A stretch of DNA of 20,000 nt, taken from NCBI RefSeq assembly GCF_004010195.1, contig NC_057718.1, forward strand, positions 7,538,217-7,558,216. The letters run 5' to 3'. A program made the translations under genes and the position numbers. The notes under the pieces were generated by a model. That model made no database searches. It was not told the DNA's origin and was given only the letters and a program-made list of their open reading frames with translations. Origin of the DNA: Chiloscyllium plagiosum (lineage: Eukaryota). This document shows, one piece after another, positions 990 through 10,800 of the stretch. How positions within the stretch are numbered: the stretch's first letter is position 1; every line of letters starts with the position of its first letter.

Positions 990-1372
990 GAGTAAGCAGA
1001 TGAGAACTTGGGTTAACATCTCCTCTGAAAGACAGTGTGGCGATCCCTCTGTACTGCATTTTATTAGATTCCCTACAGTGTGGAAAGAGGCCCATTGGCC
1101 CAACAAGTCCACACCGACCCTCCAAAGACTTACGCACCTAAACTATGGGCAATTTAGCATGGCCACTTCACCTGGCCTGCACATTTTTGGACTGTGGGAG
1201 GAAACCAGAGTATCCGGAGGAAACCTATGCAGACACAGGGAGAATGTGCAAACTCCACACACACAGTCGCCCAATGCTGGAAATGAACCTGGGACCCTGG
1301 TACTGTGAGGCAGCAGTTCTAACCACTGAGCCACCGTGCCTGTAGTGGAGTGTCAGCTCTGATTTTTCAGTC
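990..1372 (-). mobile_element. Deu-domain-type SINE fragment split by the HE1 insertion (pieces about 990-1058 and 1341-1372)
   Basis: aacatctcctctgaaagacag...ccctctgtactgca continues after the HE1 copy as gtggagtgtcagctctgatt; family assignment from memory. Confidence 0.5.
1061..1340 (-). mobile_element. HE1-like tRNA-derived V-SINE, near full length with internal deletion
   Basis: Reverse complement starts ggcacggtggctcagtggttagaactgctgcctcacag (A box) then ggttcatttcc (B box) and ends tttccacactgtagggaatcta; homologous to 6094-6238, 15227-15520 and 18336-18565. Confidence 0.9.
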
Positions 1373-1590
1373 AGAATCATTGCTGCCAAATTCCACTATT
1401 CCATCTCGTGCCACACCGGGATTTCATCTCTCATTCCCTCTCACCAGGTAGATTACTTTTTAAAAAATGGTGCCTAGCCCAGATTCCCTGTAATTACTAT
1501 TTTCTGGGAATGAAGAGAGACTCCAGGAGGAGGGCACCAGGGCCAAAATTGCAGCTTTTTACAATTCCAGATTGACTTACAATTGTCAAC

Positions 1591-1749
1591 ATTTGGAGAT
1601 GCCGGTGCTGGACTGGGTTGACAAAGTTTAAAAATTGCACAACACCAGGTTATAGCCAACAGGTTTAATTGGAAGCACTAGCTTTCGGAGCGCTGCTCCT
1701 TCACCAGGTGGTTGGACTATAACCTGGTGTTGTGTGATTTTTAACTTTG
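1591..1749. mobile_element. HHR-bearing Penelope-like mini-element, family A: minus arm 1591-1710 and inverted plus arm from 1711
   Basis: Homologous to 7192-7390 and 9308-9359; exact 13-bp TSD tacaattgtcaac at 1578-1590 and 1750-1762. Confidence 0.8.
1676..1710 (-). ncRNA. Minimal type-I hammerhead ribozyme motif with A6>G core mutation
   Basis: Minus strand reads CAC-CUGGUGA-A-GGAGC-AGC-GCUCC-GAAA-G-CUA-GUG; stem I CAC/GUG, 5-bp stem II. Confidence 0.7.
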
Positions 1750-1864
1750 TACAATTGTCAACTGCAGCATTTTGTGTTGGTGTTCAAAGGAGCTATACCA
1801 CAAGTATATTTCCTCTTTCAACCTCTGCAAGTATCTAAACTATGTGCAATTATATTATCCAAAG

Positions 1865-2140
1865 TTGTCTGAGGAATCATGATGAGTTGCTGTGGCGCAT
1901 CTTGTAGATGGTACAGTCTGCTGTGACTGAGTGTTGGTGGTGGTGGGAGTGGATGTGGTGCCAATCAAGTGGGCTACTTTGTCCTGGATGGTGACAAGCT
2001 ATGAGAGTATTGTTGGAGCTGCCCCTATCCAGGCAAGTGGGGAGTATTCCATCACATTCCTGACTTGTGTCTTGTAGATGGTGGACAGGCTCTGGTGATT
2101 CAGGAGATGAGTTACTCTTTTCAGACACCCAGCTTCTGAT
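1865..2140 (-). mobile_element. CR1-group LINE ORF2 fragment, same family as 7448-8378
   Basis: Reverse complement aligns with about 7790-8070 (cctgtccaccatctacaag...gaatactccccacttgcct...gattggcaccacatcc). Confidence 0.85.
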
Positions 2141-2917
2141 ATGTTGCCACAGGAGTTATGGAGCTAAAATTTCTGGTCTGCCAGGCAGAATTTTGCACTG
2201 CGTTAACTCAACTGTTTTGTTTGTTTTTTTTTTCAAAATCGTTGCATAGCATGCTAGGTTCTTCCTGATTGAAACTTTGGGTGTGTCTTGGTGAAAGTTT
2301 TTTTGTTTTAGCGCAATGAGATGCTAGTGGTTACAGATATGTTACTAGTTGTGGTAGATACGGGTGTGAGGGAGAAGACTGGAATTTGAGGTGATAAATT
2401 AAGTTCAACACAATATTGAAACACTGATTCTCTTCACATGCCCAACCCTTGCCCAACACTCCATCCCCAATGTCTCAATGGATTAGGAAATCCTACAAAT
2501 GCCCGCTGATATAACCCCATGCATTGGCATTACTAAAGCAGTTTTATCTGCGCTGTATTAAAACACTGAGGCCTCATTTCAAGTTCTCCTCTGTTTCTCT
2601 CTCAACCAAAACCACACTGTTACAACCTAATGGACTCTGCTTTCTGTTTTGGCTTTCTTGAAAGAAATACCCCGTTTTGATGCCCACATCTGGGTTAAAA
2701 GTGCACAGAGTTTTCCATCGCCTTGTCCCCTCGAATTGTGAACTTATCCCACCCTTACCTTCTTTTGGTAGGTGCCTGCCTCTTTACCTGGGAATGTGCT
2801 CTTCCAGCTTTTCTGTTGCAGCGATGGGCAAGTGCAAACATATTGCCATATTTAATTTGTACTGATTCTGTGCTGTCATTTTGGCACTTTACCTGCTCTG
2901 GCCTTTAGTTTGAGACA

Positions 2918-3118
2918 ACTTGGAGAACTGCAGATACTGGAGAGTCCGAGACGATGAAAAGTGGTGCTGGACAAAGCACCACAGGTCAGGTGGCATCCGA
3001 GGAGCAGGGGAGTCAACGTCTCGGGTCGGAGGACTGAGGGAGGGAAAGGGGGCTGAGAAATAAATAGAGGGAGGGGAGTGAGGCTGGAGGAAAGGGGTGT
3101 TTGCAGGTGGGAGGTGAA
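2918..3118 (-). mobile_element. Penelope-like pLTR fragment, family B, with decayed HHR
   Basis: Reverse complement reads pyrimidine-rich tract, then ...gacccgagacgttgactcccctgctcctcggatgccacctgacctg...ccagcaccac...ccagtatctgcag, homologous to 17323-17449; CUGANGA and the left stem II arm are deleted and GAAAC reads GAGAC. Confidence 0.75.
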
Positions 3119-3129
3119 AGAGCATTCTA

Positions 3130-3315
3130 GAATAAATACTTAGCAGACCAGAGAATGTCAATCCAGAAGTCACTTTGGCAATTTAAGAAACCTGACTATG
3201 AACACTTCAACTCAATACCAACAAACAAGATCCCAACAGATTCACTAATGCTCTTTTCCACTCTTTCCTGATCTGACCAATGTGTGACTGTAGCCTTTTC
3301 TCTGAAGTGGCATTT
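3130..3315 (+). mobile_element. Highly decayed tRNA-derived SINE, probably the 440-582 family
   Basis: Residual ttcactaatg...cctgatctgacc..tgtgact...tctgaagtggc motifs; recalled similarity only. Confidence 0.35.
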
Positions 3316-3331
3316 GATGAGCACGTTACTT

Positions 3332-3476
3332 ATCGGGGGACATAAATTTAAGGTGAAGGGTGGAAGGTATAGGGGAGATGTCAGGGGTGGGTTCTTTACC
3401 CAGAGAGTGGTGGGGGCATGGAATGCGCTGCCCGTGGGAGTGGTAGAGTCGGAATCATTGGCGACCTTTAAGCGGC
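3332..3476 (+). mobile_element. CR1/HER1-like ORF2 C-terminal fragment
   Basis: GHKFKVKGGRYRGDVRGGFFTQRVVGAWNALP closely matches GHSFKLRDNRYRTDVRGSFFTQRVVGAWNALP at 8495-8800. Confidence 0.9.
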
Positions 3477-4059
3477 GTGACCAACAGACCAATGTGAGTA
3501 ACCCCCAATTTGAGACCTATGCCCCCCCCCCCCCTCCTTTACACCTGGAACAATTGACCAGAGAAGTCTGGTCATTGCTAACTGCAACAACGTGTCTGGC
3601 TCGTGAGTGAGGCGGTTTGCTCGAAAGATTCTGCAACAAACTCTCATATTTGGATTCACAAGACCAGCTTTTTAATGAAGGTGGGAAATGGATTCTTAAC
3701 TAGAATAGTTTTTTCTTAAATAAAACCCAACGATTTGTGAAGGTGACAGTTTGGTAAGGAGTACCATTCTGAACTTCTCTGGACGATTAACACTTTTGTT
3801 TACAGTGTTTGTCTCTTTGTTTCTGTGCTAACCGCATTTAATGTGGAGTCTGCACTTTAACGACAACACTGTAATGAGCCAGTGGGGCTTGGTTTAAAGG
3901 TGACTTTGGTCACCAAGATGAGAATCGTTCTCTGTTTGACCCCTGTACACTGAAAGAGAAATATCTCCACATACTTTACAGGGGTGATTATCAAACAGTT
4001 TATACAGTGTTCCCTCTTGGGGATGCTGGAATATTTCAGGGAAAGTTTGTTGAAGGAGG

Positions 4060-6690: not shown

Positions 6691-7191
6691 ATGTATAGAG
6701 ACCCACAGCCCAGGGACCATTACAAATAATATAATTATGTCAGTAGCCCCATTAATTACAGTCCAGCTGATGGTAAAACTGGACAAATCTGACTCCAGAA
6801 TGAAAGCTGGCTTGATAATAACCTGTTTAATTTTCGCAATTAGTTATCATGGTTGGTTAGTCACTGAAACTTACACATATGCAGCTGCAGATGTTCTCTA
6901 ACAATAGAACATAAGCTTATTACATAAAGTTAGAAATTTTGAAAAAGCCTAACCTATATATATGTTAAAAGACCGTTTGAATTTAATACAGGCATCAAAA
7001 CAAAGCTTCAACCTGTTTCCCAGCAGCATGTTTTATAGTGACTCAGTCCCAGAATAATATCAGTCCTCTCTCAGCTTTGTAAGTCTTTATATCAGTCATG
7101 CCTTGAACCGAAGAGTCTTCCTCTCCGAGTCCATTAGCTTGAAGTTCTTTCAATTCTGATAGCCTAAACTTTCTCTGTTCTAACAACTCCA

Positions 7192-7390
7192 AAGTTAAGA
7201 ATCACACAATGCCAGGATATAGTCCAACAGGTTTATTTGGAAGCTCTAGCTTTCGGAGCGCCGCTCCTTCATCAGGAGCAGTGCTTCGAAAGCTAGTGGT
7301 TCAAAATAAACCTATTGGACTATAACTTGACGCTGTGTGATTTTTTAACTTTGTACACCCCAGTCCAACACCAGCATCTCCAAATCATGA
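7192..7390. mobile_element. HHR-bearing Penelope-like mini-element, family A: minus arm 7192-7276 and plus arm 7274-7390
   Basis: Long inverted repeat; TSD ctaacaactcca (7180-7191) vs ctaaaaactcca (7391-7402), 1 mismatch in 12. Confidence 0.8.
7243..7279 (-). ncRNA. Minimal type-I hammerhead ribozyme, intact core
   Basis: Minus strand reads GCUC-CUGAUGA-A-GGAGC-GGC-GCUCC-GAAA-G-CUA^GAGC; 4-bp stem I, 5-bp stem II, palindromic AGCU in place of helix III. Confidence 0.8.
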
Positions 7391-7447
7391 CTAAAAACTC
7401 CAGGATTTCTGTGTAAGCTTTCCTGGCTTGGGAACTGCATAGACTAC

Positions 7448-8378
7448 ACGACCTTCCCTCCATCATAAGGTCAGCATTGGGGATGTTTATCGATGGTTGC
7501 ACAATGTTCCGCATCATTCGTGACTCCTCTAGATACTGAGGCAGTCCATGTTCAAATGCAACAAGATCTGGACAACATCCTGGCTTGGGCTGACAAGTGG
7601 CAAGTAACAGTCACACCATGCAAATGCTAGGCTGTGACCATCACCAATAAGAGACAATCTAACCACCACCCCTTGGCATTCAATGGTGTTGACATCACTG
7701 AATACTCCACTATCAACATCCTAGAGGTCACTATTGACCAGAAACTCAACTGGACTCGCCACATAAAAACAATGGCTACAAGAGCATGTCAGAAACTAGG
7801 AATGCTGCTGTGAATAACTCACCTTCTGACTCCCCAAAGCCTGTCCACTATCTACAAGGCACAAGTCAGTAATGTGATGAAATACTCCCCACTTGCCTTA
7901 ATGGGTACAGCCCCAACAACACTCGAGCTTGACACCATCTAGGTCAAAGCAGCCTGCTTGATTGGCCCCACATCTACAAACATCCACCCCTTCCACCACC
8001 AACGCTCAGTAGCAGCAGTGTGTACCATCTCTAAGATGCACTGCAGAAATTCACCAAAGATCCTCAGACAGCAGCTTCTAAACCCATGACCACTACCATC
8101 TGGATGGACAAGGGCAGCAGATACATGGGAATACCACCACCTTCCACCCAACTCACCATCCTGACTTGTAAATATATCACCGTTCCTTCAGTGTCGCTGG
8201 GTCAGAATCCTGGAATTCTCTCCCTAAGGGCATTGTGGTCAACCCACAGCACATGGGCTGCAATGGTTGAAGAAGGCAGTTCACCCCCAACTTCTGAGGG
8301 GGCAACTAGGGACAGGGCAATAAATGCTGGCCCAGCCAGCAATGCCAACGTCCCACAAAATAAATAATAATAAAAAAA
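7448..8378 (+). mobile_element. 5'-truncated CR1-group LINE (RT C-terminus and 3' tail), pseudogenised
   Basis: Translates, with stops and frameshifts, to MFIDGCT (decayed FADD)...MQQDLDNILAWADKWQV...ILEVTIDQKLNWTRHI...STIYKAQV; ends in an A-rich tail taaataataataaaaaaa. Confidence 0.9.
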
Positions 8379-8412: not shown

Positions 8413-9308
8413 ATTAGAACATAACAGCGCAGTACAGGTCCTTCAACCCTCAACTTTGTGCTGACATGTGAAACCAAGCTGAAGTCCATCTAACCTACAC
8501 TATTCCATTTTCATTCATATGTTTATCCAATGACCATTTAAATACCCTTAAAGTTGGTGAGTCTACTACTGTTGCAGGCAGTGCATTCCATGCCCCTACT
8601 ACTCTCTGAGTAAAGAAACTACCTCTGACATCTGTCCTATATCTATTATCCCTCAGTTTAAAGCTATGTCCCCTTGTGCTAGCCATCATCATCCGAGGAA
8701 AAAGGCTCTCCTTGTCCACCCTATCTAACCCTCTGATTATCTTATATGTCTCAATTAAGTCACCTCTCAACCTTTTTCTCTCTAACGAAAACAGCCTCAA
8801 GTCCTTTCCTCATAAGACCTTGCCCCCATACCAGACAACATCCTAGTACATCTCCTCTGAACCCTTTCCAAACTTCCATATCCTTCCTATAATGCAGTGA
8901 TCAGAACTGTACGCATTACTCCAAGAGTGGCTGCACCAGCGTTTTGTACAGTTGCAGCATGACCTCATGGCTCCGAAACGCAATCCCTCTACCAATAAAA
9001 TCTAACACCCCGTATGCCTTCTTAACAACCCTATCAACCCGGGTGGCAACGTTCAGGGATCTATGTATCTGGACATCGAGATCTCTCTGCTCATCTGCAC
9101 TACCAAGAGTCTTACCATCAGCCCAGTACTCTGCATTCCTGTTGCACCTTCCAAAGTGAATCACCTCACACTTTTCTGCATTAAACTCCATTTGCCACCT
9201 CTCAGCCCAGCTCTGCAGCTTATCTATGTCCCTTGTAACCTGCAACATCCTTTAGCACTATCCACAACTCTACCAACTTTAATATCATCCGCAAATTTAC
9301 TAACCCAT
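8413..9308 (-). mobile_element. 5'-truncated CR1/HER1-like LINE, ORF2 RT C-terminus to 3' UTR
   Basis: WVSKFADD near 9285-9307; ORFs 8916-9248 (DIDKLQSWAERWQMEFNAEKCEVIHFGR) and 8495-8800 (SLERKRLRGDLIETYKI...FFTQRVV..WNALP) are typical CR1 ORF2. Confidence 0.95.
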
Positions 9309-9359
9309 GTGATTTTTAACTTTGTACACCCCAGTCCAACACCGGCATCTCCAAATCAT
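9308..9359 (+). mobile_element. 3' fragment of family A HHR mini-element
   Basis: tgtgatttttaactttgtacaccccagtccaacaccggcatctccaaatcat is nearly identical to 7336-7388. Confidence 0.85.
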
Positions 9360-10735: not shown

Positions 10736-10800
10736 AGCTAATACTTTCATCAAATAAACCTGTTGGATTATAACCTGGTGTTGTGATTTTTTTTTTTTAA
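10736..10800 (+). mobile_element. Fragment of family A HHR mini-element
   Basis: agcta...aaataaacctgttggattataacctggtgttgtgattttt matches about 7291-7348. Confidence 0.75.

Follow-up and report, generated by a model that had tools for sequence, protein, structure and literature searches.

The window analysed here, a 20,000-nt stretch of the genome of the shark Chiloscyllium plagiosum, holds at 7243 to 7279 of its minus strand a hammerhead motif whose stem I spans an inversion junction. The preliminary description of this DNA left two readings for it, a chance compensatory change or the retention of a foldable ribozyme, and we asked which of them fits the locus, its family and its predicted fold. 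Very probably, the locus is a dead 3'-end insertion of a Penelope-like element (PLE) in which stem I was completed by chance and the ribozyme is locked in the tip of a hairpin.

The motif and the insertion that carries it

Read from 7279 to 7243, the minus strand is GCUC-CUGAUGA-A-GGAGC-GGC-GCUCC-GAAA-G-CUA^GAGC, letter for letter as first described. C3 falls at 7275, G10.1 at 7267, G12 at 7254 and A17 at 7247, and the cut had been correctly placed 3' of 7247. The core CUGAUGA (7275 to 7269) and an extra A between positions 9 and 10.1 occupy 7268 to 7275; stem II, of 5 bp with a 3-nt loop, lies at 7255 to 7267, and the GAAA box, a loopless stem III and the cleavage triplet CUA follow at 7247 to 7254. 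On either side, GCUC (7276 to 7279) and GAGC (7243 to 7246) can form four Watson-Crick pairs as stem I, as had been claimed. The letters conform to the hammerhead core CUGANGA ... GAAA ... NUH and carry in addition the marks of the PLE minimal hammerhead, namely an unpaired A at 7268 and a G7267-C7255 pair in the place of G10.1-C11.1; hammerheads of this kind have been described as having such an extra base between 9 and 10.1 (PMC4209133). Stem III (7251 to 7248) is AGCU, which is self-complementary and of the dimer-dependent type, and an AGCU/AGCU duplex amounts to -2.5 kcal/mol. In sequence the motif belongs to the PLE minimal hammerheads; both this type of ribozyme and the structure of the insertion around it have been described before.

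The Rfam covariance models gave no hammerhead match at E<=1 over the motif region; loopless stem III variants would not be expected to score in them. Rfam matches to the miRNA families MIR845_1, MIR860 and MIR7696 over the palindrome were rejected, being far below their gathering scores and reflecting the palindrome only.

The motif lies within a 200-bp insertion (7191 to 7390), recognised from its inverted repeat, its flanks and the structure of its family as a head-to-head pair of 5'-truncated Penelope-like pLTR ends. It is flanked by an 11-bp target-site duplication (TSD), the two copies of which (7180 to 7190 and 7391 to 7401, plus strand) agree at 10 of 11 bases. The left, inverted arm (7190 to 7276, minus strand) bears the hammerhead core and ends without a tail at the inner 3' end of the family. 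The right arm (7274 to 7388, plus strand) is truncated inside stem II, lacks the CUGAUGA box, retains the U at position 1.2 and reaches the outer 3' end through an optional tail of about 35 nt (7354 to 7388) found on this arm alone; loose ends of family contigs pile up at 7387-7388. Both arms share the AGG/CCT microhomology at 7274 to 7276, at which they are joined. The inversion junction stood up to inspection, with arms at 7197-7268 and 7274-7345 that span 72 nt, are 82% complementary and enclose a 5-nt loop. The inverted pLTR, the optional tail within the 30-40 bp range and the TSD are those of a Penelope-like (EN+) insertion.

The origin of the stem I strand GCUC needs a correction, however. 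It had been attributed as a whole to the opposite arm, which holds for GCU (7277-7279), whereas the C at 7276 is the native base of the family and lies inside the microhomology. Compared with the native CCAC/GUGC, the junction alters just two positions and would by itself give C-G, U.U, C-G and G-C; since three of the four pairs are already there, the single substitution at 7245, a point variant of the family GUGC, is enough to complete the stem. With the second arm starting inside stem II, what now stands 5' of the core is complementary to the 5' strand of that stem. The preferred pairing partner of the borrowed GCU, which complements stem II of the other arm, is 7263-7268, such that the hairpin closes over the core. 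The T>A change at 7245 also lengthens a palindrome at 7240-7254 from 4 to 5 bp (AAGCU-AG-AGCUU), which offers GAGC another competing partner.

A sister insertion of the same family lies at 1585 to 1749, with a tail-bearing minus arm and a short plus arm, also head to head and with a different junction, placed in the spacer just 5' of the core. Its hammerhead (1676-1710) uses CAC/GUG for stem I, as reported; what the report omitted is that its core is mutated to CUGGUGA by a change at 1704. Two short family fragments at 9312-9359 and 10750-10794, one of them an inner end with the tail and the other a stretch 3' of the ribozyme, both lack the core. By-eye inspection of the open reading frames of the window identified no host gene; LINE-like fragments were seen, among them frames at 8495-9251 and 7320-8187 on the minus strand and at 1866-2155, which by eye resemble C-terminal reverse transcriptase (RT) fragments of CR1/L2-type LINEs. 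Several SINE-like repeats occur elsewhere in the window.

The family, its junctions and the GAGC variant

By pattern matching across the 3.56-Gb assembly, the full native core with CAC/GUG occurs in 12,186 exact copies and the 20-mer over the cut site with GUGC in 11,101, and neither reversed control pattern occurs at all. Among the copies listed (40 of 60), the family stops at two preferred points about 35 nt apart, in line with the extension at the outer 3' end that is present in the right arm of 7191-7390 and absent from the left one. The longest family member seen is a copy of about 2.7 kb (L142; G000:C30:37549600-37553300, parts 915-1490 and 1343-3620) with an inverted arm of about 580 nt, decayed RT and endonuclease frames, a CxxC linker and a CA-rich spacer that precedes the ribozyme. 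Its upstream frame matches Pfam RVT_1 at E=0.0099 (16 bits, under the cut-off of 29.6), has weak RT matches in NCBIfam and reaches 0.96 to HTH_animal/RVT_1 clusters of the ESM Atlas. The C-terminal frame that follows the RT carries a YIGET motif, has no Pfam or NCBIfam match, and reaches 0.94 to an Atlas cluster with 23% GIY-YIG members. The order of RT and then GIY-YIG expected of an EN+ PLE is thus seen in this relative and not at 7191-7390, with the GIY-YIG lead coming from the Atlas; the frames were visible in one of the two long family loci fetched. A zinc-finger-like linker motif has been described for Neptune and Nematis (PMC8557442), and the CxxC before the endonuclease frame of this one decayed copy suggests a possible Neptune-type element.

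Is the fourth pair of stem I linked to the junction? The 17-mer across the junction occurs 136 times in the genome, and from the other 135 matches we sampled 81, in 80 fetched loci; 39 of these 81 run straight into a mirror arm. GAGC was found at none of the 75 in which the site could be called (6 could not). Genome-wide, the cut-site 20-mer with GAGC has 134 copies against the 11,101 with GUGC (1.2%), and, conversely, GCUC precedes the core in none of the 30 GAGC copies fetched (the first 30 of the 134). In the complete lists, the present locus is the only one with GAGC among 50 intact-core junction copies, and the only one with the junction among 56 intact-core GAGC copies. Independence would lead to 0.23-0.58 such copies among the 50, one was seen, and the association is not significant (Fisher p=0.20), so that stem I shows no covariation beyond independence. 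GAGC is a recurrent variant of the family, unlinked to the junction, which is what the preliminary description had named as an argument against a retained ribozyme. Its other suggestion, a chance compensatory change, agrees with these counts and with the one substitution that sufficed. The hammerhead motif is far beyond chance; the 4-bp stem I is not.

With its 134 copies, the change that gives GAGC is comparable in frequency to other changes: it exceeds the mean of three control A>T sites (252 copies together) 1.6-fold, and C or G at the site equivalent to 7245 accounts for a further 238 copies. An inverted arm lies within 200 nt of 18/30 GAGC copies vs 9/30 GUGC copies, in samples drawn from different regions of the genome. 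A second GAGC match (L141) was rejected as a junction copy, as it continues into the native upstream sequence. Among the 39 direct palindromes with the same junction, 22 belong to a subfamily in which the 3' side of stem I is 2 nt longer (GUGUG) and the arms are nearly identical (L032, L036, L038, L052, L075, L089 and L098 within L031-L110, for example); this may reflect a hotspot for junctions at the CCT/AGG pair that flanks the core, or the copying of one template that was already palindromic. One further locus (L080; G000:C11:400-1470), near the start of its contig, carries the junction 17-mer twice, once on each strand and at a distance of 300 nt, one of the two lacking the upstream arm of the element; this is possibly an assembly artefact.

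Both arms have decayed. The left one differs from the column majority of 30 family copies at 7 of 87 nt and the right one from the family majority at 10 of the 68 nt compared (7274-7341). Within the left arm 2/34 positions are changed inside the ribozyme vs 5/53 outside (p=0.70), and the arm is no better conserved within the ribozyme than outside it. No base has changed among the 13 of the core and the 10 of stem II; at the divergence of the arms this has a chance of 0.07-0.15, a figure that makes no correction for the locus having been selected as an intact one.

Reads from four runs were mapped to the locus. Contigs of two organisms that start in the left flank enter the element, as far as 7234 (X4) and 7225 (X9, X10), such that a second organism probably has the insertion too and, being apparently present there, it is not very recent. 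These locus-specific contigs end at 7225-7234, short of 7245; one 86-nt contig covers 7225-7278 with one difference and is not assignable to the locus. In the single shallow RNA sample, about 2% of one run (X21), 580 reads mapped, of which 10 did so at >=99% identity and 99% run on into unlike sequence, and therefore nearly all of them come from other family copies. That same sample gave no depth on the unique flank (6750-7197), and a search of sequencing runs listed no RNA run with the insertion sequence. The family reads (over 7198-7393) are strand-biased over the ribozyme half, with about 300 vs 32 first mates at 7226-7253. Many have poly(A) or poly(T) loose ends at 7387-7388 and 7218-7220, and family transcripts may be polyadenylated near the element ends, although other copies are the source of these reads and artefacts of adaptors or priming are possible.

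Predicted folding of the motif

Folding was predicted with nearest-neighbour energies, which leave aside Mg2+, tertiary contacts and help from proteins; for a related PLE ribozyme, cleavage depends on its protein (PMC11167929). A 161-nt region folds as a single hairpin of -90.2 kcal/mol (z=-13.5), in which the CU of the core is paired and GAUGA is the loop. When the fold was constrained to the hammerhead, its probability was 0.019 for the 37-mer, 3e-9 for the 61-nt RNA 7230-7290, whose fold contains the palindrome hairpin around the cleavage site, and 1e-17 in the 161-nt context. The 37-mer alone comes closest; there the hammerhead lies about 2 kcal/mol over the minimum energy and 2.45 kcal/mol from the ensemble, and stem I reaches a probability of 0.15. 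The dominance of the inverted-arm hairpin had likewise been named beforehand as a finding against a foldable ribozyme, and the predictions bear it out.

The effect can be followed as the 5' end of the transcript is extended: the probability of stem II falls from 0.97 (5' end at 7275) to 0.10 (7278) and 0.006 (7279), while that of stem I is <=0.008 throughout the series. It appears, therefore, that the very bases that make stem I undo stem II. The same is seen across the family, where the stem II probability is <0.05 in 26/30 intact junction copies and >0.5 in 9/12 native copies. The strict hammerhead-fold probability is low in native copies too (1e-4 for the sister copy), and the comparison by stem II is the fairer one because unpaired core bases are penalised in native copies also. 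By these predictions stems I and II do not form together in the natural transcript context. The locus had been called the best candidate for activity in the window. This holds in a weak sense only, no other copy having its core unmutated; stem II is predicted to be lost here and kept in the sister copy (pair probability 0.92-1.0).

Stem III adds a requirement for a partner. Three motif matches in the window were checked, namely the 7243-7279 copy, the sister 5.6 kb away and the opposite arm, and none offers an intact same-strand partner in cis: the CUGAUGA box is missing from the right arm, which is also on the opposite strand, and the core of the sister is mutated. A partner in trans is possible. 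Two strands of the 37-mer reach a lowest predicted energy of -39.2 kcal/mol in a structure that is not the double hammerhead, for which we count 2 x -11.7 plus about -2.5 kcal/mol, a rough sum, as the active dimer is not a nested fold.

Origin of the locus and comparison with known systems

The events would then be the following. Two 5'-truncated, hammerhead-bearing pLTR ends would have been joined head to head at integration through the 3-nt AGG/CCT that flanks GAUGA, either from two cDNAs primed on opposite strands and annealed by AGG/CCT or by fold-back self-priming. One tailed and one tailless cDNA could anneal in this way, because nicking and extension by the PLE enzyme take place on both strands and reverse transcription starts at two sites (PMC11167929); as another route, self-priming on an antisense template has been published (PMC3846280). 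The bases borrowed 5' of the core would by coincidence match the family GUGC at 3/4 positions, and a neutral T>A at 7245 would have supplied the fourth pair, after the insertion as we infer, since the other arm keeps the family base. Apart from that change the insertion would have decayed neutrally. In transcripts that include them, the borrowed bases and the rest of the arm would pair with stem II, locking the core at the tip of a hairpin of about 72 bp, and therefore the ribozyme is predicted not to form; stem III would still require a second ribozyme.

Selection is a contrary reading, namely that GAGC was kept as a compensatory change to restore stem I and that the host uses this copy as a ribozyme. 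The perfect 4-bp stem, the intact core and an insertion apparently common to a second organism speak in its favour. We find it very improbable nonetheless, for the frequency of GAGC fits independence, the other 49 intact-core junction copies lack the same change, the ribozyme has no excess conservation, the hairpin dominates the predicted fold and no partner for stem III lies nearby. The retained foldable ribozyme of the preliminary description finds no support in these results, as the inverted-arm hairpin prevails and GAGC has no tie to the junction. Just as improbable to us is a conformational switch, in which the hairpin would hold the hammerhead off until the arm is removed or unwound (through trimming, through a helicase or the PLE protein, or where transcription starts near 7279) and would then permit cleavage with a partner in trans from family transcripts, the junction and the compensatory change having been retained by the host. 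If it were true, it would exemplify a ribozyme that a rearrangement rebuilt and a vertebrate host retained.

Two further readings accept a chance origin or leave stem I aside. RNA trimmed to about 7243-7279 might self-cleave weakly as a dimer, at high Mg2+ or with PLE protein, without any role at the locus. All core bases are intact, the hammerhead fold of the 37-mer is 2.45 kcal/mol from the ensemble and PLE minimal hammerheads cleave at a low level as dimers or trimers (PMC4209133), yet the two-strand minimum of -39.2 kcal/mol is not a double hammerhead and the natural flanks abolish the predicted fold; we see a small chance of it, and such cleavage in vitro would be a property common to thousands of family copies. 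Alternatively, the T>A change may have been templated, perfecting the quasi-palindrome AAGCU-AG-AGCUU at the cleavage site with no relation to stem I. Quasi-palindrome correction is a known type of template-switch mutation, the improved palindrome (5 bp instead of 4) is visible in the sequence, and its lengthening may explain the 1.6-fold excess of this change over control A>T. That excess, however, rests within ordinary site-to-site variation, with three control sites pooled, and we hold a templated change to be distinctly unlikely. The preferred account remains the dead insertion with a stem completed by chance. As found, the locus carries little weight, as one decayed copy among >12,000, and a repeat family of this size yields an apparently compensated stem by chance. 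The family itself, with >12,000 intact native cores and many tailed and inverted copies, is good material for how inverted PLE ends form.

The literature search returned no paper on the hammerhead of this family in sharks or on a stem I rebuilt at a junction; subscription papers, Repbase/Dfam and supplements, which lay outside its scope, may name the family. The closest match is the type I minimal hammerhead of metazoan pLTRs described by Cervera and de la Pena (2014, PMC4209133), which shares with ours the core boxes, the extra base, G10.1-C11.1, a palindromic 15.2-16.2 without loop 3, a short stem I, thousands of dispersed single copies and an occurrence in truncated PLE ends; the same paper also reports dual motifs that lie on opposite strands. 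That type cleaves at a low level as dimers or trimers (PMC4209133), and the minimal PLE hammerhead has been found weakly active in dimer or trimer form (PMC6765202). Unlike it, the present copy has a stem II of 5 bp, and an inversion junction supplies the 5' side of its stem I; since this side complements stem II, loss of the fold is predicted. The hosts named in the passages of PMC4209133 that we drew on are fish, coelacanth, frog and reptiles, and sharks are not among them.

The insertion resembles the inverted pLTR insertions of Arkhipova et al. (2013, PMC3846280) and Craig et al. (2021, PMC8557442) in its inverted 5'-truncated copy, its junction palindrome, its tail at one end and its TSD (8-10 bp in those, 11 bp here); it differs from those, as they are described there, in having no ORF between the arms, a total of 200 bp and a junction inside the ribozyme. 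As in Poseidon PAc of Anolis (Frangieh et al. 2024, PMC11167929), the hammerhead lies near the element end. In PAc two reverse-transcription start sites define the tail and both DNA strands are nicked and extended, from which two opposed arms would result. The PAc ORF begins at stem II, unlike the family studied here, in which the frames of the long relative L142 end about 600 nt upstream of the ribozyme. Non-LTR retrozymes (bioRxiv 10.64898/2026.07.22.740005), which have been reported from one chondrichthyan genome, are likewise PLE-derived, hammerhead-bearing and non-autonomous. We rejected a retrozyme identity, as Tandem Repeats Finder shows no tandem array in the window: retrozymes are described in that preprint as head-to-tail tandem repeats with at least two complete ribozymes, whereas the present locus is a single head-to-head insertion.
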